A stretch of DNA of 64,000 bases from Alphaproteobacteria bacterium. Lineage in GTDB: Bacteria; Pseudomonadota; Alphaproteobacteria; JAUHZY01. The stretch spans positions 512,551 through 576,550 of the forward strand of contig JAUHZY010000001.1 of assembly GCA_030425825.1 (NCBI GenBank), read 5' to 3'. The notes below the pieces were generated by a model, which did no database searches, was not told the DNA's origin, and saw only the letters and a list, made by a program, of their open reading frames with translations. A program made the position numbers and the translations under genes. Positions 35,637-64,000 of this stretch are shown here, one piece after another; positions within the stretch are counted from its first letter, which is position 1, and the number at the start of each line of letters is the position of its first letter.

Positions 35637-36185
35637 ATGGATCCTATCACGCAAATTATCACAGATGCTTATGAAAACGTAAAAGACTTTACAACATCTT
35701 TCCGTCGCGATTTTCATCCCACAAAAAATGATAATACAAGATTTCGTAAACATGATTGGAAGCCTGAAAAGCGTGGACAAGCACTGTTGGATAAGCATGA
35801 GCGTCAAGACTTGATACAGGCGCTTGCGGAAGGTGCCAAAGAAGAAGAGATGGCAGAGCTGTATGGGTTAACTGTGCGTCAAGTAAAGAAAATGAAAAAC
35901 AATTACCGTGATGATTACAAGCGTTATAAGAAGCTGTTTGAAAAAGAGATGATCGAAGTTGAAAAACAGTCGACATGCGACCCTATTATGCTTGCCTTGC
36001 GCGCTTTAAAAGGGCGTGCATTAATGCACCCAAATGGCGCTGTTTTTCTAGATGGTAAACCGTCATGCGTTAAAGAAATGATGGCCTCAGCAAATATGGC
36101 GCTGAAGAAAGATGGCAAAGATCCCATTCCATACCCTGGTGTTCACGACCTACCAGATCACGGCGCGCCTGGGTTTAATGTATAA
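35637..36185 (+). CDS. hypothetical protein with a possible HTH (182 aa); alternative small-terminase candidate
   Basis: ELYGLTVRQVKKM HTH-like segment. Position upstream of terL. Confidence 0.4.
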   Translation: MDPITQIITDAYENVKDFTTSFRRDFHPTKNDNTRFRKHDWKPEKRGQALLDKHERQDLIQALAEGAKEEEMAELYGLTVRQVKKMKNNYRDDYKRYKKLFEKEMIEVEKQSTCDPIMLALRALKGRALMHPNGAVFLDGKPSCVKEMMASANMALKKDGKDPIPYPGVHDLPDHGAPGFNV

Positions 36186-36234
36186 GGCATAAACCAAGTA
36201 AAACAAATCATCTGCAACAGCACACATATTCAGC

Positions 36235-36432
36235 ACGCGACTGCGCGACGTTGCTGGTGCAACGAAAGCCTGCGTGGGTGAGCGCTAAATATAAATAAAG
36301 AGCGCGACTGCGCGACGTTGCTGGTGCAACGAAAGCCTGCGTGGCGAACGCTAAATATAAATAAAGAGCGCGACTGCGCGACGTTGCTGGTGCAACGAAA
36401 GCCTGCGTGGCGAACGCTAAATATAAATAAAG
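36235..36432. repeat. three tandem 66-bp direct repeats (iteron-like) immediately upstream of the terS-like gene
   Basis: agcgcgactgcgcgacgttgctggtgcaacgaaagcctgcgtggcgaacgctaaatataaataaag repeated three times. Each unit contains the inverted repeat cgttgc-TGGTG-gcaacg and a TATAAAT-like box. Confidence 0.85.
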
Positions 36433-36454
36433 AGCAAGGGAGGTACTTACACTT

Positions 36455-36691
36455 ATGAAAAACAATAATGATAAAAATGAAGTGCAGTCCCTTGCTCGCC
36501 ATTTTACAGAAGATGCGCTGAAAACGCTTGTTGGTATTATGAATGACCCCGAAGCCTCTGTGTCTTCGCGCGTTTCTGCTGCACAAACAATTCTAGATCG
36601 TGGTTGGGGAAAGCTGGGCAGTGGGGCAGCTAAAGATGAGCGTACAGCAGATGTTGTTGCCGAGTTTCTAAGCTGTTTACAAAAAGGGTGA
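36455..36691 (+). CDS. putative phage terminase small subunit-like DNA-binding protein (78 aa)
   Basis: AAGGGAGG RBS. Motif RVSAAQTILDRGWGK resembles the conserved LDRGWGKP segment of many small terminases. Positioned upstream of terL. Confidence 0.4.
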   Translation: MKNNNDKNEVQSLARHFTEDALKTLVGIMNDPEASVSSRVSAAQTILDRGWGKLGSGAAKDERTADVVAEFLSCLQKG

Positions 36692-37337
36692 TACTTTCTG
36701 CAACACTCTCTTTTTTTATCGCCAAACAAAAGATCAGCTTGTTAGCATGAAAAGGTGTTTTCAGTAATAATGTTAGTCGCATTCTTAAAATCGAGGATGG
36801 AGAAGATGCTGAAAAACAAATCACTGCGTTCACTGTTTGCCCTTAACAGATCCGTTTATCAGGGCGATGTCATGAGACTGGGAAAAAACTTTACAGGGCG
36901 TAATGCGCCACCTGTAAGACCATATCGTCTGATGGCTTTTTCTGCGCAAACAACACCTGTATCAATTGTGAAGTAATTTTCCTGAACGCCTTATGGCAGT
37001 GATGTACAAAAAAGGTGGGACCCCAAACAATTTCCCTAAAGGAAGAAGGAGGAGGGAGCAGGGAAGACCATCTGAAGCCCCTTTCTGTAGGCTTAACGCG
37101 ACTCATTCATGAGGGTTTATTATTTTCATCGCTATTCAACCAACAAAGTTGTTTTTTGTACTTTTTATTTTTCCGTGGAAGTAAGAGTAAAGCCTCCCTT
37201 TCTTACCTCCCTTTTCTTTTTTTAGTGAATCGGATTATATCATAGATAAATCGGAAAAGGAAACACTTTTTTCTCTTTTTTTTATAAATTCACATTGTTT
37301 TCATATAAAACAATAAGATAATTGGAAACTTTATAGG

Positions 37338-37775
37338 TAACGTTCAAACGCCACGCAGGCTTTGCGTTGCACTGGCAACGTCGCGCGGTCGCGCTCTGGC
37401 TATGCGCGCAGTTGCAGGCAGTGGGGGTGTGTAAGTGTTACGGGGAGGTGTTTCTTTTTTCATTCCCTCTCCCCTGGCGGGAGAGGGTGAGGGGGAAGTA
37501 TGCTGTGAGGAAGAGAGATGTGTCATAAAGATTATCTCACCCTCATCCCAACCTTCTCCCATCAAGGGAGAAGGAGATTATAGGGGAGAGAGGATGTTGA
37601 TTATAAAGCACAGCAGCCACACCGCCAGATGCAGCGCGCATAGCCAGAGCGCGACCGCGCGACGTTGCCAGTGCAACGCAAGCCTGCGTGGCGTTTGAAC
37701 GTTATACATAACTCCAGAGCGCGACCGCGCGACGTTGCAGGTGCAACGTAAAGCCTATGTGGCGTCTGAACGTTA
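37338..37775. repeat. palindromic element: 72-bp terminal inverted repeats (37338-37409 and 37634-37704) flanking a hairpin-rich 220-bp core, plus one additional direct copy of the same about 55-bp repeat unit (37716-37775)
   Basis: taacgttcaaacgccacgcaggctttgcgttgcactggcaacgtcgcgcggtcgcgctctggctatgcgcgc is the near-perfect reverse complement of 37634-37704. The unit is related to the 66-bp iterons at 36235-36432. The core contains CCCTCTCCCctggcGGGAGAGGG and CCTTCTCCCatcaaGGGAGAAGG hairpins. Confidence 0.8.
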
Positions 37776-37816
37776 TCTATAATTACGCGCAGCGTATAGC
37801 GTGCGTTATAAATTAC

Positions 37817-47686: not shown

Positions 47687-48481
47687 ATGCAAAACATGAT
47701 TTTTGACATTCCAGGACAACCAAGATTAACAATCCCCAAAACAAATGGCCCTGCCATTCGCCAAGCTATGGAGGCACAGCGCAAAGCAATCCAAGCGCAG
47801 AATCAGTGGAATCACTCTGATGCAGCATATGAATTTATTAAAAGGCATGAGAAGTATCGCCCTTATCCATATTTGGATACGAGAGGAAATGTGACCATAG
47901 GTGTTGGGACGATGGTGCCTGATGAATCTGTGATGATAGATACGCCGCTTGTTGATTTGCTTGGCAACCCTGTATCAAGAAAACAGCGTGGACAAGTCTT
48001 TCGTGATATAAAGGCATTGTGGCAACAAGAGAAATATAGAAACTTACAAGCGGAATATTTCCCAAATCCACATAAGGTGACTTTACCTGAGTCAGAAGCC
48101 GATCGTATCGCAAGAAAGTATATAGAAGAGGAACTGCCTCACATTAAAAATAAATTCCAAGGATTTGATACTCTGCCTGATGCTGCAAAAACAGCTATTA
48201 TCGACATGCAGTATAACTTAGGAGATGCAGGATTTCAGCGGACGGTTCCTGAGGGATCGAACAAAACGCCGTGGCCAAATTTTTATAGTGCAATTGATGC
48301 GCGTGATTTTGAAACTGCTGCCCGTGAAGCAAGTCGTAAAGGCATTGGCCTTGGGAGGAATCAAGAAACCCAGCAATTATTGATTGACGCCGCCAAAGAA
48401 TGGCAGCAACAGCAATCACAAAAGCCTGTTGCGCCAACACCAGAAGCGCAAGAGAAAGGCGGACTGTTATCTTTTTTCTAG
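47687..48481 (+). CDS. GH24 (T4-type) lysozyme-like protein, copy 1 of 3
   Basis: FIKRHEKYRPYPYLDTRGNVTIGVGTMV matches the catalytic E...D...T...TIGxG motif of phage-type lysozymes. AAGGAG RBS. The start is set at MQNMIFDIPGQ. Confidence 0.7.
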   Translation: MQNMIFDIPGQPRLTIPKTNGPAIRQAMEAQRKAIQAQNQWNHSDAAYEFIKRHEKYRPYPYLDTRGNVTIGVGTMVPDESVMIDTPLVDLLGNPVSRKQRGQVFRDIKALWQQEKYRNLQAEYFPNPHKVTLPESEADRIARKYIEEELPHIKNKFQGFDTLPDAAKTAIIDMQYNLGDAGFQRTVPEGSNKTPWPNFYSAIDARDFETAAREASRKGIGLGRNQETQQLLIDAAKEWQQQQSQKPVAPTPEAQEKGGLLSFF

Positions 48482-48955
48482 AGGTTTATGGTGATACACT
48501 GAGAAGTGCCTGTCATAAGTCGGTTGATAATCATAGCGACTTTTAAGCCTTCTTAAAGCATCACCATAATATTTCCATGATCCAGTAGAGATTGAGACTC
48601 TTTCCCAAGGTTGGCGAAAGCTCGAGATTTCTAGTCGTTTAAGAAAGCCTTCTTTTACGCTGGGTGGCAAGTCAGTATAGTCAAAATCGTCTGGAAATAT
48701 TCTATAGCACTGCAAAACCAGAACTTTTTCACCATTGTGAATAAGGTAGGGACAATTCAGGTCGAAAACTTCATATTTATTTTCATAGGTGATTTTTGTT
48801 TGTGAGACTGTCATTTTGCCACCTGCTGCAGGGCTTGGATGCCACACGCCATAAAACTCTTTATTTTTAAAAGGTTCTGTTAAAGGCGGATCGGGTGTAT
48901 CTGCATAGATACCCAGTACAATTAAACCCACAAAGAACATCAGAAAATATTTCAT
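48467..48955 (-). CDS. secreted partner protein with signal peptide (candidate immunity protein or lysozyme inhibitor), copy 1
   Basis: MKYFLMFFVGLIVLGIYADTPDPPLTEPFKNKEFYGVW is conserved in all three copies. The 3' end overlaps the lysozyme gene by 15 bp, convergently. Confidence 0.6.
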   Translation of the reverse strand: MKYFLMFFVGLIVLGIYADTPDPPLTEPFKNKEFYGVWHPSPAAGGKMTVSQTKITYENKYEVFDLNCPYLIHNGEKVLVLQCYRIFPDDFDYTDLPPSVKEGFLKRLEISSFRQPWERVSISTGSWKYYGDALRRLKSRYDYQPTYDRHFSVYHHKPLEKR

Positions 48956-49024
48956 GGATCAAGTTTAACCACAGGTTGTGATGTGTGCAATCTGTTTGTT
49001 TTATTAACCAAGGAGAGATTTTAA
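48956..49024. promoter_or_regulatory. conserved divergent intergenic spacer (family A), copy 1
   Basis: accacaggttgtga..gcaatctgtttgttttattaaccaaggagagattttaa shared with 50243-50311 and 51548-51613. Confidence 0.6.
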
Positions 49025-49786
49025 ATGAAAAATATGATTTTCGATATTCCAGGACAGGCAAGGCGTGTTATTCCTTTGTCTGATAAGCAAGCTATTATAA
49101 ACGCACAAATTGCACATAGAGAGGCAATGGATCAACAGAAAGCACAGGGCAGCTGGAAATATTTGGACCAGGTATTTGATTTTATCAAAGAACATGAAGG
49201 AGGAATTGTTCCAGCTCCATATCTTGATACAACAGGAAATGTAACAGTTGGTATTGGTCACAGAGTGCCAAATGCGCAAGCTATGACCAAGTTGCCTTTA
49301 GTAAATCCATTAGGTCACGATGTATCTGATGAAGTAAAACGACAGGCTTTTGATGCTGTGTATGGATTGCGTGAAAAACAAGAATATCACAATAAAATTG
49401 CTAAAAAGTTTCCAAGCCCATACAAGGTTCGATTACCAGATTCAGAAGCAGTACGCATTGCCAAAGAGTATATCAACAATGAATGGCCTTTGGTTCAGCA
49501 CAAGTTTAATGGTTTTGATACATATCATCCTAAAGCACAAATGGCTGTGATGGATATTCAGTATAACATCGGGAATAAAAATTTTTCTCAAGAGAAATGG
49601 CTAAAATTTTATGATGCAATGGCACGGCGAGATTATGAGTCTGCGGCCGTAGAGTCTCATCGCAAGGATGTTGGTCAAAATCGGAATGAAGAGGTGCGAA
49701 AGCTATTGCTTGAAGCAGCAGAAGAAACACGTGCGCAAACAAAGTCGCCTTCGAATGATGTTGATTTACTTGGAGAATGGTTTTGA
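49025..49786 (+). CDS. GH24 lysozyme-like protein, copy 2
   Basis: FIKEHEGGIVPAPYLDTTGNVTVGIGHRV. The N-terminal 45 aa are identical to copy 3. Confidence 0.7.
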   Translation: MKNMIFDIPGQARRVIPLSDKQAIINAQIAHREAMDQQKAQGSWKYLDQVFDFIKEHEGGIVPAPYLDTTGNVTVGIGHRVPNAQAMTKLPLVNPLGHDVSDEVKRQAFDAVYGLREKQEYHNKIAKKFPSPYKVRLPDSEAVRIAKEYINNEWPLVQHKFNGFDTYHPKAQMAVMDIQYNIGNKNFSQEKWLKFYDAMARRDYESAAVESHRKDVGQNRNEEVRKLLLEAAEETRAQTKSPSNDVDLLGEWF

Positions 49787-50242
49787 TGTTGTTGAGGTTG
49801 GGCGATAGTAATATCCTTCAAAACATTTTGAGTAGAGCATGTCTGGTTGGTAGGAAATACCAAAGAAAGCACCCGCATATGTATCGCAATAGCTGACTGA
49901 AAGGCTAACACCTTTATCTAAGTATCGAGGTTTTTTGATTGCGAGGCGAATCAATTCATACTTTGTTTCGCCGTAAGGGTATTTGACGAGGCATTTCAAA
50001 ATAACGTCTTGTTTCCCGTTATACAAAAGATAGGGACATTCTTCATATGAATCGTTCTTTTCAAATGAGATGCCTGTCTGTGTGATGGTCATTTTCCCCG
50101 CGGCAAGAACAGACGTGCTGCTTGCTTCCCACACACCATAAAACTCTTTATTTTTAAAAGGTTCTGTCAAAGGTGGATCGGGAACATCTGCGTAGATGCC
50201 CAGCACAATAAGACCAACAAAAAACATCAGAAAATACTTCAT
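49766..50242 (-). CDS. secreted partner protein, copy 2
   Basis: Same signal peptide and N-terminal 40 aa as copies 1 and 3, with a diverged C-terminal part. 21-bp convergent overlap. Confidence 0.6.
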   Translation of the reverse strand: MKYFLMFFVGLIVLGIYADVPDPPLTEPFKNKEFYGVWEASSTSVLAAGKMTITQTGISFEKNDSYEECPYLLYNGKQDVILKCLVKYPYGETKYELIRLAIKKPRYLDKGVSLSVSYCDTYAGAFFGISYQPDMLYSKCFEGYYYRPTSTTSKPFSK

Positions 50243-50311
50243 GTAATCAGCATAACCACAGGTTGTGACTTGCGCAATCTGTTTGTTTTATTAACCAAGG
50301 AGAGATTTTAA
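50243..50311. promoter_or_regulatory. conserved divergent intergenic spacer (family A), copy 2
   Basis: taatcagcataaccacaggttgtgacttgcgcaatctgtttgttttattaaccaaggagagattttaa contains the palindrome TTGCGCAA. Confidence 0.6.
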
Positions 50312-51085
50312 ATGAAAAATATGATTTTCGATATTCCAGGACAGGCAAGGCGTGTTATTCCTTTGTCTGATAAGCAAGCTATTATAAACGCACAAATTGT
50401 ACATAGAGAGGCAATGGATCAACAGAAAGCACAGAAAAACTGGAAGCATTTAGACAATACGTTTGATTTTATTAAGATTCATGAGGGAGATATTTCACAA
50501 ACACCTTACCTTGATACGACAGGCAATGTAACAATCGGTATTGGACATAAAGTAACAGATGCCGAAGCGATGGTGAAACTGCCATTGGTTAATCCGCTGG
50601 GACATGATATTTCAGATGATATGAAGCGACAGGCTTATCATGAGATTTATGAATTGCGTAATAAGCCTGAGTATAAGAATCGTGTAAATGGTTCATTTCC
50701 TAATCCTTACAAAGTAAAATTACCAGATGCAGAAGCTGTCCGTATGGCAAAAGAATACATCAATAATGAGCTGCCTTTAGTTCAAGATAAGTTTAATGAT
50801 TTTGATACTCTTCATCCCAAGGCACAAACAGCGATTATGGATATTCAGTACAATATTGGAAATAAAAATTTTTCTAAAGAGAAGTGGCCAAAGTTTTATA
50901 CGGCAATAGATCAACGTGACTATGATACCGCAGCGGCAGAATCTCATCGTAAGGATGTTGGGATAGAGCGAAATAAAGAAGTAAAAAGGTTGCTGCTTGA
51001 GGCAGCAGAAGAAATAAAGGCGGGTGCGATCGCAGCACCAACTCAAAACAATAGCACTAGTGGATTACTTGGTGAATGGTTTTGA
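50312..51085 (+). CDS. GH24 lysozyme-like protein, copy 3
   Basis: FIKIHEGDISQTPYLDTTGNVTIGIGHKV. Confidence 0.7.
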   Translation: MKNMIFDIPGQARRVIPLSDKQAIINAQIVHREAMDQQKAQKNWKHLDNTFDFIKIHEGDISQTPYLDTTGNVTIGIGHKVTDAEAMVKLPLVNPLGHDISDDMKRQAYHEIYELRNKPEYKNRVNGSFPNPYKVKLPDAEAVRMAKEYINNELPLVQDKFNDFDTLHPKAQTAIMDIQYNIGNKNFSKEKWPKFYTAIDQRDYDTAAAESHRKDVGIERNKEVKRLLLEAAEEIKAGAIAAPTQNNSTSGLLGEWF

Positions 51086-51547
51086 AGGAGGGGATGACTC
51101 TTTGTAGTAATATCCGCCACCACAATTTGAATATTTCATATATGGTTGTGAGGTAATGCCAAAAAAAGCACCGCTATATGTTTCGCAAAACCTTACATGA
51201 AGCATAATATTTTCATTTGAGTATTTTGGCCTTTCGAGAGAAAGACGTATAAGCATCAATTCTTGTGGCGCAAAGCCATCAGGATAATATGTCTTACATT
51301 GAAGGACAATATCTTGTGAACCATTATACAAAAGATAAGGGCATTTTTCGTAGGAATTGTTCTTTTCAAACGAAATCTTCGTTTGCGCAATGGTTATTTT
51401 ACCTGCGGGTCGAACCGTATTACTTATAGGTCTCCACACGCCATAAAATTCTTTATTTTTAAAAGGCTCTGTCAAAGGTGGATCGGGAACATCTGCGTAG
51501 ATGCCCAGCACAATAAGACCAACAAAAAACATCAGAAAATACTTCAT
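51065..51547 (-). CDS. secreted partner protein, copy 3
   Basis: MKYFLMFFVGLIVLGIYADVPDPPLTEPFKNKEFYGVW. Confidence 0.6.
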   Translation of the reverse strand: MKYFLMFFVGLIVLGIYADVPDPPLTEPFKNKEFYGVWRPISNTVRPAGKITIAQTKISFEKNNSYEKCPYLLYNGSQDIVLQCKTYYPDGFAPQELMLIRLSLERPKYSNENIMLHVRFCETYSGAFFGITSQPYMKYSNCGGGYYYKESSPPSKPFTK

Positions 51548-51613
51548 GTAATCAGCATAACCACAGGTTGTGACTTGCGCAATCTGTTTATTTTATTAAC
51601 CAAGGAGGAAAAA
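51548..51613. promoter_or_regulatory. conserved divergent intergenic spacer (family A), copy 3, here driving the portal gene
   Basis: Near-identical to 50243-50311 up to the RBS (aaccaaggagg). Confidence 0.6.
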
Positions 51614-53605
51614 ATGTCTAAAAATGATATCCAAACAATTTTAAAGCAAGAAATTGATCAATCGCTGTCCTATATGGGCGGAGAATTGGCACATTCGCGT
51701 AAAAAGGCGATGGAATATTACCTAAGCAAACCATTTGGCAACGAGGTTGAAGGCCGCAGCCAGGTTGTGTCTAGCGATGTTGCTGATACAATTGAATGGA
51801 TCTTGCCATCACTGCTTAAGATCTTTACATCCAGCGACAAGGTTGTGCGCTTTGACCCTGTTGGCGCAGAAGATGAGGCCGTTGCTGATCAAGCCACAGA
51901 TTACGTTAACCATATCTTTCAGAAGGATAATCCTGGTTTTGTGATTTTGTATACGTGGTTCAAAGATGCTTTGCTGCAAAAAAACGGCTTTGTGAAGTAT
52001 TATTGGCAAAAGAAAAAAGATATTTCGAAAGAAACATTTAAAGCATTAAGTGAAGATGCGTATGCACTGTTGCTTGCCGAAGTAGAGGCCAATAGCGACC
52101 TCAAAATAAAATCAAGAAAAGCAAATAAAATTAAGGAGAAAGAAGATGAATCTAATTCAAAAGATAAAGAAAGTAAAAACATTTCTGCAACATACGATGT
52201 TGTGGTTGAGCGACATATTGAAAAGAGCCGTATCTGCGTTAAAAACGTTAGCCCAGAAGAGTTTCTTATACATCCTGACGCGAAAACGATAGATGATGCT
52301 GCTTTTGTCGCACATCGCTTGGAGCGTTCGATTTCTGACCTTATCGCATCTGGTTATGATCGTAAAACAGTTGAAGCCTTAAGTGACGATGATGGCTTAC
52401 ATTTCAATGAAGAGCGTCAAGCACGACGTTTGTTCGATGACACGCCCTTGCATGAACGCAGCGATAACACACGCAAAGTCCCTGTATATGAGTGCTATAT
52501 TCGCCTTGATGAAGATGGAGATGGTATAGCAGAGCTTCGCAAAGTCACAGTTGCAGGGGCTGAACTAGAGGTTTTAGATAACGAAGAAGTTGACTTTATT
52601 CCTTTTGCTAGCCTGTCACCTGTGTTGATTCCACATCAATTCTATGGCTTATCTATCGCAGATCTTGTGATGGACTTGCAGCTCATTAAATCTACTGTGA
52701 TGCGCCAAGTGATTGATAATATGTATCTGACAAACAATAACCGTCATGTTGTCGTAGATGGACAAGTGAATCTGGATGATTTGATGACTTCACGTCCAGG
52801 TGGTGTGGTGCGTGTGAAAAACCCTGCTGCCATTCAAGCACTAAATGCGCAAAGCATGCCTGAAAAAGCTTTTGGCTTGCTGCAATATATTGATGGTGTC
52901 CGCGAAGAACGCACAGGCGTTACCAAGAATATGCAGGGCATGGATACAAATACGCTGAACAAAACAGCGAGCGGAATAAACCAAATCATGACTGCTGCAC
53001 AGCAACGGATTGAACTGATTGCGCGTGTATTTGCAGAAACAGGCGTGAAGGATTTATTCTCGAACTTGTTAAAGCTGGTTGTTAAATACCAAGATCAACC
53101 CCGCATGATTCGTCTTCGTAATGAGTGGGTGCCGATGGATGGTTCACAGTTTGACCCTGATATGGATGTCAGCGTTTCAGTTGGTTTAGGCACAGGAAAC
53201 AAAGATCAATCTTTGGCACATTTACAGAATATTTTGAACATCCAAAAAGAAGCTATTTCTGTACAAGGAGGTGTTTTTGGACCACTTGTTACTTTGGATA
53301 ATATTCATAATACACTTGCAAAAATGGTTGAAAATGCAGGCTTGAAAAATGTTGCTGAGTTCTTCCAAAAACCTAATATGGAACAGCTTATGGCGCAAGA
53401 AAATCAAAAAGGTACGGCGCCAAATCCACAGGCACAAGCCATGCTTGAGCAATTGAGGCTGGCATCAGAGAAAATCCGCATTGATGGCATGAAAGCTGAG
53501 ACAGATCGCTTGAAGGCCGAAACTGATGCGGCAATCAAAGAGCGTGAAATTCGCTTGAAAGAAGAAGCCGCACGACAAAAAACAGAAGAAGCTTCTGATG
53601 TTTAA
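51614..53605 (+). CDS. phage portal protein
   Basis: 663 aa. The start MSKNDIQTILKQE follows an AAGGAGG RBS; the ORF-track start at 51383 runs back through the partner gene and spacer. Portal-like central region and a C-terminal coiled coil. Gene order terS-like, terL, ..., portal. Confidence 0.6.
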   Translation: MSKNDIQTILKQEIDQSLSYMGGELAHSRKKAMEYYLSKPFGNEVEGRSQVVSSDVADTIEWILPSLLKIFTSSDKVVRFDPVGAEDEAVADQATDYVNHIFQKDNPGFVILYTWFKDALLQKNGFVKYYWQKKKDISKETFKALSEDAYALLLAEVEANSDLKIKSRKANKIKEKEDESNSKDKESKNISATYDVVVERHIEKSRICVKNVSPEEFLIHPDAKTIDDAAFVAHRLERSISDLIASGYDRKTVEALSDDDGLHFNEERQARRLFDDTPLHERSDNTRKVPVYECYIRLDEDGDGIAELRKVTVAGAELEVLDNEEVDFIPFASLSPVLIPHQFYGLSIADLVMDLQLIKSTVMRQVIDNMYLTNNNRHVVVDGQVNLDDLMTSRPGGVVRVKNPAAIQALNAQSMPEKAFGLLQYIDGVREERTGVTKNMQGMDTNTLNKTASGINQIMTAAQQRIELIARVFAETGVKDLFSNLLKLVVKYQDQPRMIRLRNEWVPMDGSQFDPDMDVSVSVGLGTGNKDQSLAHLQNILNIQKEAISVQGGVFGPLVTLDNIHNTLAKMVENAGLKNVAEFFQKPNMEQLMAQENQKGTAPNPQAQAMLEQLRLASEKIRIDGMKAETDRLKAETDAAIKEREIRLKEEAARQKTEEASDV

Positions 53606-54364
53606 ACAACAAGGTGTTTTTGGCAGAACACTTGAAGTAAGAACAGGAGGTCATGCTTCTGTTTCGCCTCGTACAATGGAACGTCGTGTAACAGATCCAA
53701 GTCCTGCGCTTCAAGACTTTGCCACGAAGGAGGGCAGCCAAGAGGCTGTCCCTTCTCATGACATCACCTATGTCGAAGGCGGTGCGTTGAATGATTATCC
53801 ATCACCCTCTGTTGGTGAAGGACAAAGCAGCAGCAATAGATGGAATGACTACGCCCCAGATCCCTTCGGCTGGGACAGTTTACCGGGGTCAGAACACCTC
53901 CCTTCAAAGCGTGGCTGGACATTGCCATCAGGTAGGTCCATCACAGCGCCATTCCCAGGACAAGAAGAAAGCTATTTCCGTTGGAGTGAGAATAAAATGG
54001 CACAACATCAGCGAAATATTGATGCATTAGATGCTGCCTATACTGTGTTCATGGAGGGAGAGGCACGCCAGCATGCTTCGGAACAACGAGATACAATGAG
54101 ACGCCAAGCTTTATACAACATCAATAACGGTATGGGGGCTGTGACGGCGGGTATGATATGGCACAACAAAGAAGAGAAGCAGGCCAGGTGAGTTTTTCTA
54201 GAACGACGCGTGATGTTATCAAAAGCCAAGCTTCCATGTTTGGTGCTAATAAAATACTTGGTGATTACGCAAATCCTGTGATCCAAAATTTGGGAGAGGA
54301 TATCATCAAAGACAGAATCAATCAGATAGGAGATTATCTGAGGAATCTAGGCCCAATTTACTAG
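53598..54364 (+). pseudogene. glycine-zipper toxin-like gene, deletion/frameshift derivative (two ORF fragments, 53598-54191 and 54158-54364)
   Basis: The N-terminal part matches the 56260 and 58047 proteins (TYVEGGA...WNDY.PDPFGWDSLPGSEHLPSKRGWTLPSGRSITAPFPGQEESYFRWSENK) up to GMGAVTAGMI. The C-terminal match (SQASMFGANKILG...INQIGDYLRNL) then continues in the +1 frame. The glycine-zipper segment is missing. Confidence 0.55.
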
Positions 54365-55195
54365 CTAATAAGTTTGGTCAATTTTTTGGAAAAACACTTG
54401 AATTGGCATACCTGGACGCCAGTTTCCAGCTAAACTCTTGATCTTTTCTTTCTGCTTTAAGGAAAGTCGCTGACGAGATTTTTCACGAAGAGACAAGACT
54501 TCCTTATCATTCAAAACAGACTCTTTATATTTAGGAAAAAACAAATGAGGATACAGGTCTCTTAAAAGATCGCTTTTTTGCTTATATGCTATGTCTGCAA
54601 TATCAAGAAGAAATTGTACTTTGAGTGGTTTGTGAAGACTTTTGTACTCTTTTTCATCCATAATAAAAGCGATCAGAAAGATACCGTTTAAATCGCCTTC
54701 ATCGGCGGCTTGCACAAAGTATTTTAAAGCATCTTGTGGTGTTTCACTTTCATATAAAAAGAATAGCCCAAGGTCAATCAAAGCACCGCCATCCTTTTTC
54801 TCTGCTGCCTTCTGTGTCCATTTCCATGCTTGTTTTGGGTCTTGCTTGACGGCAATGCCTTCGCTGTAAAAACGACTTATCTTATTCATGGCTTCTGGAT
54901 CACCTGATCTTGCGGCTTCTTGATATAGTGCGAAAGCCTTGGCAGGATTCTTTGCAACGCCCAAGCCATGTTCCCAAATAAGACCCTCTAATGTCTGAAA
55001 ACGTGGATGATCAGCAGAAGATGCCAGTACAAGCACCTGGTCATATTGTTTGTTATCAAAAGCAGTGAGTGCATTATCCCACAGCTGTTGGTCAATGGGC
55101 TGATCATAAGGGCTTGATTGATGAGAGGTATAAAACACACCTGCCGCAACAAGACATAAAACAAAAACAAAGGGGAAGAGAAGTTTCTTTTTCAT
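54365..55195 (-). CDS. Sel1-repeat protein with signal peptide, copy 1
   Basis: MKKKLLFPFVFVLCLVAAGV signal. Sel1-like repeats LEGLIWEHGLGVAKNPAKAFALYQEAARSGDPEAMNKISRFYSEGIAVKQDPKQAWKWTQKAAE. Confidence 0.7.
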   Translation of the reverse strand: MKKKLLFPFVFVLCLVAAGVFYTSHQSSPYDQPIDQQLWDNALTAFDNKQYDQVLVLASSADHPRFQTLEGLIWEHGLGVAKNPAKAFALYQEAARSGDPEAMNKISRFYSEGIAVKQDPKQAWKWTQKAAEKKDGGALIDLGLFFLYESETPQDALKYFVQAADEGDLNGIFLIAFIMDEKEYKSLHKPLKVQFLLDIADIAYKQKSDLLRDLYPHLFFPKYKESVLNDKEVLSLREKSRQRLSLKQKEKIKSLAGNWRPGMPIQVFFQKIDQTY

Positions 55196-55259
55196 AAAGC
55201 AACTTTAACAACCAGCAATTGAAAAAACTATCTTTTATTTTACCAATGGAGACCACCTA
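55196..55259. promoter_or_regulatory. conserved divergent intergenic spacer (family B), copy 1
   Basis: ataaagcaactttaacaaccag.aattgaaaaaactatcttttatttta recurs at 56200, 57987 and 59727. Confidence 0.6.
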
Positions 55260-55400
55260 TGTCGAAGGCGTTGTGGTACAAAGCAGCATCACTTCCTTTT
55301 ACAAGCATATCGCCAGCTATTGGGACGACGGCAAGCCATATTATACGACCTGCTGTCAAACAAGGAGTTGATGAGATATATAATTATTTTGACTATTAGT
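55255..55400 (+). pseudogene. decayed 5' fragment of a toxin-like gene
   Basis: METTYVEGVVVQSS... matches the N-terminus NDETTYVEGGAVQSS of the 56260 and 58047 genes, then degenerates and stops. Confidence 0.4.
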
Positions 55401-55401: not shown

Positions 55402-56199
55402 TTATTGGATGGCGGCTGGGATTCTTATAAATGTTCCAGGACGCCATCTTTGAGCTTTATATCTTAAATCGGCAAGCTCTTTATCATTTAGATATTTGGG
55501 CAGGCTCTTTTCCAGCATTTTATAGTTTTTGTTTCTTCTTTCTTTATAAGGCGCAGGAAAAAAATACGAGCGGTCTGGTCCAAATCCAGATACATCTGTA
55601 AAGGCATTATTTACCTTGAGAATGTAGTATAAATAGGCACTGCGTTTGTAATCTTGAGATTCAAATGCATCGATGGCCTCTTCAAGTAGCATTGTCGAGT
55701 TGCCTGAATAAGCAGATCTTTGACGATAGTTATTGTATTTTTCACTTCTTTTGGGAACTGTTAATGTTAAATAAAAGTACTTGTCTGCGAAGGATAAAGT
55801 TTTTGATTTCTCAAGCCAATGGATAAGCTGGGTATCTGAAAGAAGAGGGGTGTTATCAAGCATATAAGCGATAACAATAAAAAGCGCATTTTCATCGCCT
55901 TCATCGGCACTCTTTTTTAAATTCTCGATATTTTGGCCTGTTAAATCATGCGTTTTTTTTATCCATTTCTGCATTTCAATACTGTCAGGTGAAATGTTTT
56001 TGTGCTTTAAATATCCAACGACTTTCCAGGCAGCATAAACATCCCCTGATTGCGCCTGCTCTTTAAGTTGTTTCAAGTTTTTTTGGTAAGAGTACCATGG
56101 AAGAATATGGCTAAAGGTCACAAAGAAAACAATGCAAAGAATAATGCCGCGCAATCTTACTCTGGTTGGGGGTTGAAGTGGGTTCTGATATTTTTTCAT
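55402..56199 (-). CDS. Sel1/TPR-like repeat protein, divergent family member
   Basis: N-terminal TM/signal. Helical repeat composition. The C-terminal RWRPGTFI resembles the NWRPG and DWRIG tails of the other copies. Confidence 0.55.
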   Translation of the reverse strand: MKKYQNPLQPPTRVRLRGIILCIVFFVTFSHILPWYSYQKNLKQLKEQAQSGDVYAAWKVVGYLKHKNISPDSIEMQKWIKKTHDLTGQNIENLKKSADEGDENALFIVIAYMLDNTPLLSDTQLIHWLEKSKTLSFADKYFYLTLTVPKRSEKYNNYRQRSAYSGNSTMLLEEAIDAFESQDYKRSAYLYYILKVNNAFTDVSGFGPDRSYFFPAPYKERRNKNYKMLEKSLPKYLNDKELADLRYKAQRWRPGTFIRIPAAIQ

Positions 56200-56259: not shown

Positions 56260-57147
56260 ATGAACAATGACGAGACCACCTATGTCGAAGGCGGCGCGGT
56301 ACAAAGCAGCAACAATAGCTGGAACGACTATGACCCAGATCCTTTCGGCTGGGACAGTCTGCCAGGGTCAGAACATTTACCCTCAAAGCGTGGCTGGACA
56401 TTGCCGTCAGGTAGGTCCATCACAGCACCATTCCCAGGCCAAGAAGAAAGCTATTTCCGTTGGAGTGAGAATAAGATGGCACAACATCAGCGAAATATTG
56501 ATGCATTAGATGCTGCCTATACTGTGTTCATGGAGGGAAGTCATACACAAATAGATCGTGTCAGAAGCTTACAAGGCTCATATCCACCTGCCCATATTAA
56601 CGCACCTCTTTTTGGGAAGATGCGTCAATATGTTCCGCAACAACCCAGGACTTTAACGCCAGAACAGCAAAGTGCAATGAGACGCCAAGCTTTATACAAC
56701 ATCAATAACGGTATGAGTGCTGTGACGGCGGGTATGATTGGGATGAGTCGTGGTGCGTCTTTGGGTGTTCCTGGCATGGTCGCGGGTGGATTGTTTGGGG
56801 CTTTTAACGGTTATCAGGCGAGTCATGCAATTCAAAACAATCCCATAAATGCTTTAGATTTGGCAAGTCGATACGTCCCAATAGGAAAGGCGGTTGATAT
56901 AGGAAAAGATCTAAGTATTAGTGCTTTTAATCAATATCGCGAAAATGGTCATATAGATGCGTCTCAAGTTTTACGAGATACGGCTGTCAATCAAACTGTG
57001 GGAAGGGGAGTCAAAAGTATTCTGGGAGATAATTTGTCGCCAATTTCTGCGCTTGGAACAGAGAATATTTTGGGAGACCGTATCAATCGTGGTCTTAAAA
57101 AAATAGATGAGTATCTTTACCAAAAAGGGTATATCACTGGATATTAG
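56260..57147 (+). CDS. glycine-zipper membrane toxin-like protein, copy A (295 aa)
   Basis: AAGGAGG RBS. W/P-rich N-terminal domain. Glycine zipper GMSAVTAGMIGMSRGASLGVPGMVAGGLFGAFNG. Variable C-terminus. Confidence 0.6.
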   Translation: MNNDETTYVEGGAVQSSNNSWNDYDPDPFGWDSLPGSEHLPSKRGWTLPSGRSITAPFPGQEESYFRWSENKMAQHQRNIDALDAAYTVFMEGSHTQIDRVRSLQGSYPPAHINAPLFGKMRQYVPQQPRTLTPEQQSAMRRQALYNINNGMSAVTAGMIGMSRGASLGVPGMVAGGLFGAFNGYQASHAIQNNPINALDLASRYVPIGKAVDIGKDLSISAFNQYRENGHIDASQVLRDTAVNQTVGRGVKSILGDNLSPISALGTENILGDRINRGLKKIDEYLYQKGYITGY

Positions 57148-59726: not shown

Positions 59727-59795
59727 AAAGCAACTTTAACAACCTGCAATTGAAAAAACTATCTTTATTTTAAGGAGAACAAGAAGGCGATTTAC
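59727..59795. promoter_or_regulatory. conserved intergenic spacer (family B), copy 4, followed by a degenerate gene start
   Basis: ataaagcaactttaacaacctgcaattgaaaaaactatctttattttaaggagaac, with no intact downstream toxin ORF. Confidence 0.5.
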
Positions 59796-59894
59796 AGCTA
59801 TTATTGGTGGTAAGAGATACACCTTGGTGAACGTCAGGAAGAAGTGCTTTAGTGATATGCTTGATTCTTGTTTTAAATACTTCATACTAAACAA

Positions 59895-60362
59895 ATGAAG
59901 AAAAAAGCTTTTATTCCTGAGAATATTGATTGGATTGTTTGGCGCGGTATGTTCTGGGAGACATTGCGCAATGCGATTATCTTTTTTACTTGGGGTGCGG
60001 CCAATGTTGTAATGGACGACCCGGAACAACATTTTTACATTCCATTTGCCTATGTGTTCTTTGCGCATTGCTTTTATTTGACGCATCGCATTTGTTACGC
60101 CACGCATACACGTTTTGATAAATATGCGGAAGCTTTTTTTAAAACAAAATCAGAATACAAATACAAGCTTGCTGTCAAAACATTTTCTCAGCGCTTGCGC
60201 CTGTTTTTATCTTTTTTATCGCGTGCTTTGGTGCGGCTTTCTTTGCTTGTGCTCTTTCTGCCAATGATGGTTGGTCTTATTAATATTCTTACGCCATACA
60301 GGTGGTTGCCTTATGATTACAAGCTGTGGTTTTATCAATACTTTATTTTATGGTGGGCATAA
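59895..60362 (+). CDS. hypothetical membrane protein (155 aa)
   Basis: Several hydrophobic helices (IIFFTWGAANVV, LSLLVLFLPMMVGLINIL). Confidence 0.4.
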   Translation: MKKKAFIPENIDWIVWRGMFWETLRNAIIFFTWGAANVVMDDPEQHFYIPFAYVFFAHCFYLTHRICYATHTRFDKYAEAFFKTKSEYKYKLAVKTFSQRLRLFLSFLSRALVRLSLLVLFLPMMVGLINILTPYRWLPYDYKLWFYQYFILWWA

Positions 60363-60623
60363 TTTTTCTTGATCGCAGATAAAATCTCTGTGTACAATAA
60401 AACAATGGCTTGTACGGATTATACTCTTTTACCGTTTTATTTTTCTCCCGCAGTGATGGACTCACTTGCGATACTTGCTATCATCACAATTACGACAATT
60501 ATTATTACAGGCTCCATTACAGGGGCACGAACGATCTCCACCGGTACGCAGTAAGCTGTTTTAGGCCCAACGTATCGGGCCTTTCAGAGCTTTAAGCCGA
60601 AGGTTTTTCGTTGAATTTGATTT

Positions 60624-60929
60624 TTGAAAAACGAAAGAATGGAGATGACCTTGAAAAATTTTCCCTATGAACAACTTGCCGCGATGGCTTTCAAGCGTCC
60701 AACAGAGATGCAAGAAGATCAACTTACTGCGGCTATGGACACACATAAAAAGCATCGCTTTGTTGATGAGTTAAATGGCTATTTAAGCGAACTAGGTGAA
60801 TCAACAAAAGCGCATGGCGAATCATGTAGCTGGGGTGAATATATCGCAAATAACTATAAAGAAAAAAATGCGCAAACTTTCTTAAATGACCTGCGTATAC
60901 AGTATCTTAGAAAAGTTATTTATAAATAA
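60624..60929 (+). CDS. hypothetical protein (101 aa)
   Basis: ORF only. Confidence 0.35.
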   Translation: MKNERMEMTLKNFPYEQLAAMAFKRPTEMQEDQLTAAMDTHKKHRFVDELNGYLSELGESTKAHGESCSWGEYIANNYKEKNAQTFLNDLRIQYLRKVIYK

Positions 60930-60956: not shown

Positions 60957-61223
60957 ATGCAAGAAGCTGTTTTGTATGAAGAAATATCACGTGGTCAAAC
61001 TGCAAAAGACTTACTGAATAATAAATTATTAAAAGATGCATTGGAAGCTGTAGAGGCCGCCGCGTTAGAAGAATGGAAAGAAACAGATAAAGATGCTTTC
61101 TCACAGCGTGAACGCATGTGGCAAAAGCTGCAAGTTATTGAAGAGTTCCGCCAGGACCTCACGCGCCATATTGAAACAGGCGCATTGGCAAAAGCACAAA
61201 TGAAAAGAAAAAAACGCTCATAA
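60957..61223 (+). CDS. hypothetical protein (88 aa)
   Basis: GAGGAGG RBS and ORF. Confidence 0.4.
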   Translation: MQEAVLYEEISRGQTAKDLLNNKLLKDALEAVEAAALEEWKETDKDAFSQRERMWQKLQVIEEFRQDLTRHIETGALAKAQMKRKKRS

Positions 61224-61284: not shown

Positions 61285-61788
61285 ATGTTTTACAGTAGGA
61301 AATACAGCTTTTATTGGAGTGAGAGACAGCAAAAACAGGCTGCTTTGAAAAAGATCAGTAAGCCTGCATATAAGAAATATAAGAAACAAAGATGGGCTTT
61401 AACTTATCAAGAGATCTCACTGTTAACAACTTTTTCACTTATTATCTCTTCGGCTATGTTAAGTCTTTCATCAAAAGTTTTTGCATCGAGAGTAACAGCT
61501 GTTACCGCTTTAACAAGTATGGCGACACTCTATCGCAACGGAAAAAACCTTGACCAGTTTGACAAGTTGGTGGGTAAAGATGTTCAAAATAGCTTTAAAA
61601 AGTCTTTGAAAAAAAGCGAAAGAAAAGCAGGAAAAAGAGCAAACCTAGCTGTCTTTATGTTAGAAGAAAAAAACGCAAAAATGCTCTCATACCTTACGAA
61701 GCAAATAGATGAAAACAAACCAGGCGCCTTCACGAAGACAGAAAACGTTCTGTTTATCGCAAAATTTAAAGCAGCACTTGAGAAATAA
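61285..61788 (+). CDS. hypothetical protein (167 aa)
   Basis: ORF only. Confidence 0.4.
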   Translation: MFYSRKYSFYWSERQQKQAALKKISKPAYKKYKKQRWALTYQEISLLTTFSLIISSAMLSLSSKVFASRVTAVTALTSMATLYRNGKNLDQFDKLVGKDVQNSFKKSLKKSERKAGKRANLAVFMLEEKNAKMLSYLTKQIDENKPGAFTKTENVLFIAKFKAALEK

Positions 61789-61794
61789 GAAAAT

Positions 61795-62361
61795 ATGATG
61801 AAACCTTTAACTTTTTTAAAACAAGAAGTCTTTCAACGTGTCTTTATGCCTTATCAGTATAAAAAGACATTGTTACGTCAACTTGCGCCAGATGGCCACT
61901 TGGAAAAATCATACCAAAAGTATCGCAAAACATATATGGCTGCTGAAGATAAAATATTGATGGCTGGAACCGCTGCATTAGGCACCGTTGTTTCGATGGC
62001 TGCGACCTTTATTTTGCCTGTTTCTTTTGTCGGTACCATTGCCTCGTTTACAGCCATTGTTTTCACCGCAAATGCTGCATTAACGCTCAAAAAACAAGTG
62101 AAAGAGCCGGCAAAATGGGCAAGAAGTTTAAAAGCACAACTGGCTATGCAAACGAAAGAACATATAAAAGAACAACTTCTTACACCTGAAGCATTGTCGC
62201 GCTTGACGATGATTGCACAAGAAAAGCAGTTAGAGGAAAAACCGTCTTCTCTACAAAAAGATCTTATTCAATCACTTGAAGACCAAAACTCGCAAAAGTT
62301 CTTAAAGGTCAGAAACATTAAACTATTAATCAACATGAATGAGAAATTAATGCGTTCTTAG
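61795..62361 (+). CDS. hypothetical membrane protein (188 aa)
   Basis: Two predicted TM helices (LMAGTAALGTVVSMAATFILPVSFVGTIASFTAIVF). Confidence 0.4.
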   Translation: MMKPLTFLKQEVFQRVFMPYQYKKTLLRQLAPDGHLEKSYQKYRKTYMAAEDKILMAGTAALGTVVSMAATFILPVSFVGTIASFTAIVFTANAALTLKKQVKEPAKWARSLKAQLAMQTKEHIKEQLLTPEALSRLTMIAQEKQLEEKPSSLQKDLIQSLEDQNSQKFLKVRNIKLLINMNEKLMRS

Positions 62362-63227
62362 GGTTTGTAAACACGCTGGAAAGGGCGGCGTTTAAAGATA
62401 ACCACTCCAACACCTGTCATTGTAAATATACCACCAATCGCTGTCATTGTTGATAATGATTCTCCCAAAAATACAACGGCAATCCAAATACCAAAAACAG
62501 GCTCTAACATCGAGAGTGGCATAACCTGATTGATTTCATAATTTTGTAGAAGAAAATACCAAACACTATAACAAAAAATTGATCCCACAATAAGTGAGCT
62601 TGTCAGCCAAAAAATATGACGATGTGAAAAAATTTCTAGCATCTCCATGCTGGGACTTTCAAAAATGAATGAGAGAATTAAGATAGGAATTGCTGCAAAA
62701 ACATTCATCCACGCATTCAGCGTAAAACCACTTATATGCTTTAAACGCTTAGCATATAAAGACCCTGCTGGAAAACAAATCGCAGCACCTAATGTGAACA
62801 AAACACCACTAAAAGTTCCATCCAGATGTGGGTTTCCAACGATAAAAATAATACCAATAAATGCTAAGGAAATGCCAATAGCACGCTGCTTGCCAAGCAT
62901 CTCAGAAAAGAAGATAGCTGCCATCAGTGAAGCAATAGGGACCTGTGTTTGAACAAGAAGAACACTGGCAGAGGCAGAAAGGTTTTGCAGGCCAAAGTAA
63001 AAAAGTGGCGTCATTAAAACACCCATGAAAAGGGTAAACACCAAAACGTCTTTAATATCTTTTCTAGGGAATTTAGTGAAGGGTGCCACCAAAGCACCTG
63101 TAATTAAGAAACGAACAGCGACCAAGAAAAGAGGGCTTATTTCACCAAGAATAACTTTGCTGATCGGGAAGCTGGCACCCCAAAATAAAATACACAACAG
63201 CGCAAGAAAAAGATGAAACGGTGTCAT
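62358..63227 (-). CDS. EamA/DMT-family transporter
   Basis: 10-TM hydrophobic profile. LFWGASFPISKV and the duplicated EamA-like halves. Confidence 0.7.
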   Translation of the reverse strand: MTPFHLFLALLCILFWGASFPISKVILGEISPLFLVAVRFLITGALVAPFTKFPRKDIKDVLVFTLFMGVLMTPLFYFGLQNLSASASVLLVQTQVPIASLMAAIFFSEMLGKQRAIGISLAFIGIIFIVGNPHLDGTFSGVLFTLGAAICFPAGSLYAKRLKHISGFTLNAWMNVFAAIPILILSFIFESPSMEMLEIFSHRHIFWLTSSLIVGSIFCYSVWYFLLQNYEINQVMPLSMLEPVFGIWIAVVFLGESLSTMTAIGGIFTMTGVGVVIFKRRPFQRVYKP

Positions 63228-63922
63228 CTTGTCATGACCAAAGCCAGAGATCCTTGAAGCTTTTTATCTGGCATAAAGTCTTTGCTGTCAGATTCTTTCT
63301 TTTCATTCTTTTTAAGAATGCGCATGTTCTCTGAACGGTATGACACAAAAAGATCTTCTGTTTCCTCATGAGGTTTAGAATCAGAGTAAACCATATGCAT
63401 ATTCTGAAGAACCGCCATCAGGTGTTTCTGTTGAAAATTTCTTTTTTGCGTATTCGTCATATCTGCAGTTGCTGTTTGAAACTCTGTCGAAACAAGGTGA
63501 TTATTAATGACGTTATTTGCCAGTGTTGCGGTGGTTTTAATCTCTTCCGGCGCGCATCTATATGCATGCGAGGCCAAAACATCAACATAAGCCTTAAAGT
63601 TTTCTTTTTCTAAAAGCTTTACACGCGCATGAAGCGGGTTCTTTTCATCATAATCAAGACGGCCAATCAAGTGATCACGGATTGTGACAAGCTCTTGTAT
63701 GCGTCTCTCTTCTGTCCAATAATCTTGACGATTGATAAGAATATTGGCCAAGTTTGTACCATAATGTTGCCCCATTATGTCAACAAACTGACCTAAACTG
63801 CCATCAATTTTTTTAAGACTTTTGTATAAGCCGCGACGCTTATTAAGAAGGGTCTGTGATTTTTTTGTTTTTTTCATATCACTCATATAATAATGGAGCG
63901 CTTCTGAAAACTCATTAACCAA
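63224..63922 (-). CDS. hypothetical protein (232 aa)
   Basis: ORF overlapping the EamA gene stop by 4 bp. Confidence 0.4.
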   Translation of the reverse strand: MVNEFSEALHYYMSDMKKTKKSQTLLNKRRGLYKSLKKIDGSLGQFVDIMGQHYGTNLANILINRQDYWTEERRIQELVTIRDHLIGRLDYDEKNPLHARVKLLEKENFKAYVDVLASHAYRCAPEEIKTTATLANNVINNHLVSTEFQTATADMTNTQKRNFQQKHLMAVLQNMHMVYSDSKPHEETEDLFVSYRSENMRILKKNEKKESDSKDFMPDKKLQGSLALVMTR

Positions 63923-64000
63923 AGACTCAGAAACATTGTCTATACTGTTTAGTTTATCGTCAAGATCACGTTTTATATAAATCTTGCCATTGGTGTAATA

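Follow-up and report, generated by a model that had tools for sequence, protein, structure and literature searches.

A probable SU10/LUZ24-like prophage head module swollen by cargo gene arrays in an alphaproteobacterial chromosome

The window analysed in this study is a stretch of 64,000 nucleotides of bacterial chromosome (GC about 40%) from an alphaproteobacterium, in which genes for phage DNA packaging are separated by long runs of toxin-like, lysozyme-like and orphan genes. Such an arrangement raises the question whether the phage genes are leftovers of a decaying prophage or belong to an element which the bacterium still keeps. In an earlier note the locus was taken for a fragmented packaging module without capsid or tail genes, decaying or domesticated and repurposed as a platform for effector and immunity cassettes. 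The present analysis indicates that it is probably the packaging and head module of a long-resident SU10/LUZ24-like (short-tailed) prophage, which is swollen by cargo but maintained. The whole 64-kb window was scanned for tRNA genes and Rfam families (zero matches), for repeats and for matches of its open reading frames (ORFs), and its sequence also occurs in short-read assemblies of run ERR3428545. Three further contigs are used below. L001 is a short-read contig which is 100% identical to 59715-64000 and then runs 4.3 kb past the window end. L002, the Logan contig ERR3428545_113446, holds a second, compact prophage of the same family from the same genome (the sibling prophage). L003 is a 26-kb metagenome contig with a related lineage of the element.

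The phage genes are the following, the last two being on L001 with positions counted on from the window:

35637..36185, plus strand: ORF182, a helix-turn-helix (HTH) protein of a family located upstream of the small terminase gene (TerS); weak HTH_23 match
36455..36691, plus strand: ORF78, apparently the C-terminal half of a LUZ24/PaP3-type small terminase; PHROG and PDB matches
39339..40715, plus strand: large terminase (TerL), full length; Terminase_6N E 2.4e-9, phrog_2 E 2.7e-51
51614..53605, plus strand: portal protein of SU10/LUZ24 type, full length; PF23899 SU10_portal
60957..61223, plus strand: small post-portal phage protein, displaced 7.35 kb from the portal; profile match
~64488-65132, portal's strand: scaffold gene, 214 amino acids (aa); PHROG 3927 E 1.3e-16
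~68151, portal's strand: start of a SU10-type major capsid protein (MCP) gene, first 63 codons

All of them are on the plus strand and follow the canonical order of HTH ORF, TerS relic, TerL, portal, small protein, scaffold and MCP, and strong ribosome-binding sites (RBSs) are kept by seven out of seven. TerL has an intact Walker A motif (GHGVGKT), Walker B motif (LFIVDEAS), TGNPT coupling motif and nuclease Asp motifs; it is equal in length to its homolog in the sibling prophage, with which it shares 75% identity, and its amino acid identity to L003 is 86%. The portal matches PF23899 at E 4e-224 over 2-591 of 593 and solved portals in the PDB at E 1e-129, and it is 75% identical to its L003 counterpart and 53% to that of the sibling prophage. 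Both genes, which had been noted from the letters, are thus real and full length. A scan of metagenomes with TerL found only relatives at 54–56% identity, and a scan of genome contigs gave only relatives at 37–45%, mostly Undibacterium prophages. The nearest relatives of portal and TerL are mostly from alphaproteobacterial metagenome-assembled genomes and from marine or freshwater podophages.

What sets the locus apart is the distance between these genes. In annotated relatives the order TerS-(lysozyme)-TerL-portal-small ORF-scaffold-MCP is contiguous, and related phage loci gave the following baseline:

From the end of TerL to the start of the portal: 10,898 nt in the window; in 85 related loci a median of 30 nt and at most 1,954 nt
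From the end of the portal to the start of the MCP: ~14.5 kb in the window; in 76 related loci a median of 1.66 kb and at most 6.5 kb

The two gaps therefore measure 5.6 and 2.2 times the largest found in relatives (10.9 kb where the maximum is 1.95 kb, and ~14.5 kb where it is 6.5 kb). From ORF182 to the MCP start the module measures 32.5 kb, compared to ~6 kb in L002 and in MW202481; 27.4 kb lie between phage genes and the module is stretched about five-fold. Fragmentation in the sense of an interruption by 27 kb of cargo is thus correct, while the module is colinear and has not been stripped of its capsid genes. The largest gaps among the relatives belong to the closest viral contigs (L021-L024 from IMG/VR, 51–55% portal identity), in which inserts of 1–5 kb, made up of unknown genes, occupy these two junctions as well. 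The junctions therefore behave as hot spots throughout the clade, and the window is the extreme case. Cargo is confined to the junctions between core genes and its content varies among the relatives, as would be expected of hot spots.

It had been noted earlier that no protease, major capsid or tail genes follow the portal within the next 10 kb. Within the window this holds for the capsid genes; beyond it the scaffold gene and the MCP start follow on L001, 0.5 and 4.2 kb past position 64000, so the apparent lack of capsid genes is an artefact of the window end. Besides its PHROG match, the scaffold protein matches the scaffolds of nine relatives, and three orphans stand between it and the MCP start. 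The N-terminus of the MCP is 86% identical to that of the sibling prophage and 58% to an annotated MCP, and all database relatives of the fragment carry PF17236 SU10_MCP. L001 stops at a 27-nt run that is identical in the MCP copies of the window element and of the sibling prophage; this shared run explains the contig break and implies that the MCP gene continues. A homolog search with the 63-aa fragment returned short fragments only, none from the source genome. Given the identical run, recombination or complementation between the sibling prophage and the window element is conceivable. A complete contiguous structural module just outside the window had been named as the finding that would speak against decay. 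What was found there agrees with this in part: a scaffold gene and the start of an MCP gene in the expected order and orientation, separated by cargo rather than contiguous.

The small gene at 60957-61223 shows how the region behind the portal has been opened. A profile built from the post-portal ORFs of 12 relatives has its sole window match there (E 3.3e-14), tblastn matches were obtained from 9 relatives, and the canonical RBS is kept. The toxin/Sel1 array that follows the portal has therefore been inserted, over 7.35 kb, between the portal and the gene that normally adjoins it.

At the other end of the module, the ORF at 35637-36185 had been called terS-like. It is not a TerS: ORF182 is 39.5% identical to L002 7401-7835, the ORF which precedes the bona fide Terminase_2 TerS of the sibling prophage, and 59% identical to its L003 ortholog. 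A tblastn search for a Terminase_2 homolog of the window element found none. Instead of a full-length small terminase (~150 aa with HTH and oligomerisation core) there is only ORF78 of 78 aa, which matches phrog_641 TerS (E 7e-5) and phrog_15261 (E 2.6e-7) and, weakly, the solved PaP3/NV1 small terminases (PDB 7joq/6w7t, E 0.03–0.06, residues 76-112). It aligns to about residues 55-140 of the 157-aa TerS of UFV-P2, and the motif IMNDp...R..AAQ.ILDRgwG is shared. The N-terminal HTH half is missing from ORF78 and also from its 97-aa L003 ortholog. Judged by these alignments, ORF78 is a putative TerS relic without the DNA-binding half.

Comparison with L003 allows selection on the phage genes to be estimated. 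The gene order in L003 is that of the window, namely a homolog of the 711-aa flanking gene, ORF182, ORF78, a conserved non-coding stretch, TerL and portal, after which a 408-aa protein with the orphan toxin N-domain described below starts 69 nt behind the portal. Its cargo differs: a single 359-aa minus-strand ORF lies between TerL and portal (1.27-kb gap), and ORF461 of the window is lacking. Nonsynonymous (pN) and synonymous (pS) differences to L003 were as follows:

TerL: pS 0.72, pN 0.12; pN/pS 0.16 (bootstrap 0.13–0.21); NG86 omega 0.05
Portal: pS 0.67, pN 0.16; pN/pS 0.23 (bootstrap 0.19–0.27); NG86 omega 0.11

For ORF78 (0.31), ORF182 (0.28) and the 711-aa gene pN/pS was 0.28–0.33. Frame-breaking differences in L003 are 1-nt homopolymer indels only, in a contig of 2x coverage, and all other indels are multiples of three; the pseudogenes of L003 were for this reason rejected as evidence of decay. 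GC at third codon positions of TerL and portal is nearer to that of host genes than in the sibling prophage. The selection signal, the in-frame indels, the retained RBSs and this composition argue together against neutral decay. The description of the element as decaying is disfavoured by the first two of these, and its description as domesticated is a live option, since TerL and portal are intact under purifying selection and TerS is without its DNA-binding half.

The separation of TerL from the portal by about 11 kb of minus-strand hypotheticals, a GH108 protein and lysozyme cassettes was confirmed, the gap being the 10,898 nt given above. It holds the following features:

40744..47561, minus strand: insertion block 2a, with ORF277, ORF297, a GH108 protein, ORF214, ORF167, ORF89 and ORF98
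42667-44730, minus strand: GH108-domain protein of 687 aa with hydrophobic C-terminus; GH108 E 1e-20
47687..51547: insertion block 2b, three cassettes, each of a GH24-like muramidase (plus strand) and a convergent signal-peptide protein (minus strand)
47687-48481, 49025-49786 and 50312-51085, plus strand: the muramidases, with Phage_lysozyme and Pesticin matches
48467-48955, 49766-50242 and 51065-51547, minus strand: the signal-peptide partners
51548..51613, plus strand: spacer before the portal, common to cassettes 2 and 3; hairpin and T-run at 51563-51587, then RBS AACCAAGGAGG

In block 2a GH108 was the sole recognised domain and no phage structural match was found with Pfam or PHROG. A check of the hypotheticals of 40744-46946 against phage structural profiles had been proposed; the scans of 40.7–47.6 kb gave no such match. 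The cassettes of block 2b are paralogous (44–72% and 46–69% identity across the three), and the E/D/T catalytic motif is readable in 3/3 muramidases.

The spacers tie the portal to this array. The 66-nt spacer before the portal is nearly identical to those of cassettes 2 and 3, RBS included, and an identical hairpin with T-run (ACAGGTTGTGA..GCAATCTGT TTxTTTTATT) occurs at 48971-48995, 50258-50282 and 51563-51587, directly 5' of the RBS of the second and third muramidases and of the portal. As judged from its sequence, this element could be a terminator or attenuator which insulates each unit. The RBS core TAACCAA..GGAGGAAAA-ATG is found upstream of the L003 portal as well; it is therefore probable that the cassette array copied the native 5' region of the portal on duplicating. 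It had been proposed that the portal shares both promoter and RBS with the cassette spacer. The RBS and spacer are indeed shared, and a portal promoter cannot be claimed because matches to promoter consensus are about as frequent as in shuffled sequence (43 sites vs 41.9). Terminator-like sites showed a modest excess (29 vs 19.8).

Behind the portal a toxin/Sel1 array follows, as earlier noted, with three toxin-like and three Sel1 genes:

53598..54191, plus strand: ORF197 (tox197), truncated toxin copy; its start overlaps the portal stop codon
54365..59726, both strands: insertion block 3, with Sel1 genes, ORF265, full toxin-like genes and a toxin relic
54365-55195, 57144-57986 and 58875-59726, all minus strand: Sel1 proteins
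55402-56199, minus strand: ORF265
56260-57147 and 58047-58871, plus strand: full toxin-like genes
59895..60929, plus strand: last part of block 3, with two orphan ORFs of 155 aa (membrane-like) and 101 aa; no Pfam/PHROG match
61285..64000, both strands: insertion block 4, orphans and a transporter
61285-61788 and 61795-62361, plus strand: two membrane-like orphans
62358-63227, minus strand: EamA transporter
63224 to ~64252, minus strand: 342-aa orphan which runs off the window

ORF197 carries the orphan toxin N-domain and stops before the glycine-zipper region. Between the first Sel1 gene and ORF265 there is a 43-nt relic of a toxin 5' end (55249-55291), 86–91% identical to the starts of the toxin-like genes tox295 and tox274, which points to a deleted toxin copy and to ongoing recombination within the array. 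Of 1.84 billion representative proteins, only those of this genome and of L003 carry the N-domain of the toxin family, and the orphan families of cargo and toxins comprise no more than five sequences. Pfam and PHROG scans of 53.6–62.4 kb gave no structural match, and those of the cargo here and in L021/L022 gave almost nothing on cargo function.

It should be mentioned that the high-GC viral contig L022 has two proteins, at 3594-4433 and 10574-12145, that share an N-terminal motif (FLKHGPR..E.LA.AQQ..P ... FVGPD) and differ in their C-termini; one follows the post-portal ORF, the other the MCP. By their sequences the two may represent a further polymorphic family of cargo at junctions of the head module.

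The junction before TerL is occupied in a different manner:

36210..36440: three tandem 66-nt repeats between ORF182 and ORF78, with further copies at 37365-37394 (inverted) and 37624-37759
36692..39338: insertion block 1, made up of a non-coding stretch, repeat copies and ORF461
37817-39202, minus strand: ORF461, an orphan without Pfam/PHROG match, absent from L003

The repeat family (core GCGCGAC.GCGCGACGTTGC.GGTGCAACG) has 6 copies, compared to 0 expected. The repeats bracket a 1.2-kb stretch between ORF182 and ORF461, and are absent from L003, where the homologs of ORF182 and ORF78 overlap. The non-coding sequence 37026-37332 upstream of TerL is conserved at L003 5803-6109 (~68–78% identity) and contains the purine-rich run AAGGAAGAAGGAGGAGGGAGC together with a complementary pyrimidine run. 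It showed no Rfam match and no fold beyond that expected from composition (z = 0.37); it may be a pac-like site or have a regulatory role. A segment resembling a repetitive extragenic palindrome or a miniature inverted-repeat transposable element is present at ~37440-37600 and would translate as 'PLAGEGEGE'.

Taken together, every gene junction of the module has been opened by blocks of non-phage genes. To judge from weak domain matches and from the arrangement of the genes, the cargo consists of moron-like units, many of them antisense: cassettes of muramidase and periplasmic partner, glycine-zipper toxin-like genes with Sel1 genes, GH108, a transporter and orphans. The arrays have expanded by local tandem duplication, with the cassette spacer, including the portal RBS, copied along; shared spacers, near-identical 5' ends, the truncated toxin at the portal stop and the 43-nt relic argue for duplication of this kind. 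The junctions behave as insertion hot spots with turnover, as L003 and the nearest viral relatives have different or smaller cargo, and all the while TerL, portal and the TerS relic have stayed intact under purifying selection. The proposal that a prophage-derived element acts as a platform for effector and immunity arrays is thus supported.

Whether such an element can still propagate is another matter. Genomes of the relatives are of 37–46 kb. If early genes, ~10 kb of tail genes and the missing part of the MCP are added, the element would, by our estimate, exceed ~55–60 kb and be too large for its own head. The excess size, the TerS without HTH, the antisense blocks and the hairpin before the portal suggest that it is probably no longer a self-propagating phage. 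The conservation of TerL, portal and the TerS relic favours a maintained set of expressed genes, so that the sequences probably represent a particle or packaging gene set which is kept and still expressed. This set may be like a gene transfer agent (GTA), or it may be a defective prophage that is retained for the cargo it can release.

Some observations weigh against this reading. Synonymous divergence from L003 is near saturation (pS 0.67–0.72) and the omega values are therefore imprecise; some of the constraint could also be left over from a past in which the two copies were still active phages. The left flanks differ, L003 having LptC/LptB there, so that vertical descent as strict orthologs is not proven. 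Of the family profile the scaffold covers only the C-terminal two-thirds, and it may be truncated; the MCP is seen for its first 63 codons only, and no tail, adaptor, lysis or integrase genes were seen in the sequence up to ~68.3 kb. The TerS homology of ORF78 is weak (E 7e-5 and 0.03).

One alternative, along the lines of the earlier note, is a decaying stump in which the capsid and tail genes are lost and TerL and portal are leftovers, the stump serving as a landing pad for cassette arrays. In its favour, structural matches in the window are limited to TerL, portal and the small post-portal ORF, TerS is truncated and the scaffold possibly so, integrase and tRNA genes are absent from the window, and host genes in L003 stand 3.5 kb from the packaging genes. 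Scaffold and MCP nevertheless follow in the correct order just past the window and RBSs are retained; neutral decay would by now have destroyed ORFs of 1.4–2 kb, while pN/pS is 0.16–0.23 at near-saturated synonymous divergence. We consider decay unlikely. An active temperate phage with a heavy moron load, the window and L003 being two integrations of related phages, would account for the intact TerL and portal, the correct order and orientation and the different left flanks. The closest viral contigs have inserts at these junctions too, and in this host the lineage is an active one, as the intact sibling prophage shows. It is rather improbable all the same, since the head module alone takes 32.5 kb and the whole would reach more than ~55–60 kb, TerS is without the HTH half in both lineages, long antisense blocks split the late genes, a terminator-like hairpin immediately precedes the portal, and L003 has no early region beside the packaging genes.

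A domesticated, GTA-like or toxin-releasing particle system derived from a podovirus-type prophage, with a cluster that exceeds the head capacity, would agree with the HTH-less TerS of ORF78 and its L003 ortholog, the lack of the HTH being described as the defining trait of GTA-type TerS (PMC6854486). It would agree also with the purifying selection and common synteny in two lineages, the oversize of the cluster and a composition ameliorated towards the host. This reading, too, is rather improbable: there is no homology to RcGTA-type genes and the portal is of another family, two lineages only are at hand, zero tail genes were seen, and the TerS homology is weak. A phage satellite (PICI-like or capsid-forming) with its own TerL and portal that exploits the sibling prophage appears very improbable. 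An intact related prophage does exist in the same genome (TerL 75% and MCP N-terminus 86% identical), but no integrase, primase/replicase or satellite-type regulator was met among the ORFs scanned, the element of at least 32 kb is far larger than known satellites (islands of 10–20 kb), and the gene order is the phage's own. It is hardly conceivable, finally, that cassette repeats led to a chimeric assembly with an unrelated cargo set between phage genes. The cassettes do have common spacers and 5' ends of ~190 nt, the portal, imm3 and tox197 genes were not found intact in the short-read assembly, and both junctions flanking the portal are supported by the source assembly alone. Against this, contigs at 100% identity cross the TerL/cargo, cargo/post-portal-ORF and EamA/scaffold junctions. 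The independent short-read Logan contig L015 matches 37661-48878 at 100%, which rules out an assembly artefact at the TerL/cargo junction; in L003, too, non-phage ORFs occupy the junctions of TerL with the portal and of the portal with what follows. The maintained, cargo-swollen prophage module is thus retained as the preferred explanation.

Such a module can be set beside several known systems. The eukaryotic association module of Wolbachia phage WO is one contiguous module beside structural genes and is rich in eukaryote-like domains. It had been offered as a comparable case, and the likeness extends to a prophage with a large non-phage cargo in an apparently host-associated bacterium; here the cargo is interspersed at junctions and no eukaryote-like domains were found in it. 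The same gene families in the same order are present in LUZ24/PaP3-like and HTVC/uvMED-like podophages (UFV-P2 JX863101, MW202481, L002), where they are contiguous, with ~6 kb from the pre-TerS ORF to MCP in place of 32.5 kb. The sibling prophage itself has the order ORF145, TerS, TerL, 117-aa ORF, portal, 96-aa ORF, 342-aa ORF and MCP, with a scaffold-like ORF and a Terminase_2 TerS, and also encodes SSB, AAA_24, Sipho_Gp157 and a CI-like repressor. The closest known architecture is that of accessory-gene hot spots, as known in P2-like phages and P4 satellites (PMC9122126) and in the 'grounded' prophages that are sites of gene innovation (PMC6379469). As in the window, cargo is placed there only between core genes, the content at one junction differs between relatives (here L003 and L021-L024) and many units are antisense. 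Those prophages have one or two hot spots, whereas nearly every head-module junction is occupied here, with 27 kb in all; the cargo of the window consists of what appear to be interbacterial toxin and immunity arrays with orphans rather than recognised anti-phage systems.

The MuF polymorphic toxins of temperate phages (PMC5576092) resemble the post-portal genes in that a toxin-like gene lies directly downstream of the portal in both lineages; its N-terminal domain is conserved, the C-termini vary, and immunity-like genes stand beside it. They differ in that the N-domain here is an orphan limited to two lineages, the putative immunity genes are opposite-strand Sel1 proteins, and extra full copies form an array. 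No Pfam match to a MuF domain (PF04233/PF06152 or related, E <= 0.01–0.05) was obtained for ORF197, tox295, tox274 or the 408-aa protein of L003. From its position, the orphan toxin domain next to the portal might be a MuF-like head-loading signal. In GTAs (PMC6854486; PMC7947584) phage-derived head and packaging genes are kept under purifying selection in the chromosome, which the values against the one syntenic lineage L003 suggest here too. A TerS without N-terminal HTH, proposed as the defining trait of GTA-type small terminases (PMC6854486), and a cluster above the likely head capacity are further likenesses, the TerS homology being weak here. RcGTA is of HK97-type ancestry and has a compact cluster; the window has a SU10/LUZ24-type portal and MCP dispersed among cargo. 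As the portal and MCP families differ, the element is not a member of the RcGTA family.

Other parts of the window hold genes of interest in themselves. Phage-like early genes are present on the minus strand at 17674-19884 and 23812-24519 (DUF6456, DnaA_N-like, DnaD-like helicase loader, Cro/CII-like HTH, and a CI-type HTH with S24 repressor), the two groups being separated by flagellin-like genes. The latter are two proteins of unusual architecture, with a flagellin N-terminus fused to ConA/Laminin_G-like domains (20189-21649 and 21757-23292, minus strand); their Laminin_G domain recurs, at 41% identity over 210 aa, in an RTX protein at 389-2809. At 23059-23770 on the plus strand, just upstream of the CI-like repressor, overlapping ORF fragments share 51-aa segments of 94% identity, which suggests a short tandem duplication. 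The plus-strand region 11616-17645 codes for paralogous orphans of 631, 171, 381, 534 and 321 aa with repeated beta-rich modules, several of which have C-terminal hydrophobic anchors; they have no Pfam/PHROG matches and are not phage tail genes. Displaced tail genes at 10–17.6 kb were ruled out on the same grounds: no PHROG matches, and a paralogous family with anchored C-termini.

For the study of prophages in general, the locus shows that the absence of capsid genes within 10 kb of a portal is insufficient to call a prophage stripped. If the anatomy described here holds, it would be an extreme and datable case of a late operon colonised junction by junction by competition genes, in which the packaging and head genes stay under selection despite colonisation. 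It would also be a second, non-MuF case of toxin genes tied to a portal gene. The HTH-less TerS and the oversize cluster would make the element a candidate for an early or alternative route of domestication, in phages of a lineage that had so far no link to GTAs. It is doubtful, though worth keeping in view, that bacteria of such small genome (a 1.66-Mb chromosome of ~40% GC) have domesticated a podovirus-type head into a GTA-like or cargo-releasing system whose own cluster can not be packaged; if this were true, it would be a GTA-like origin independent of all known ones.

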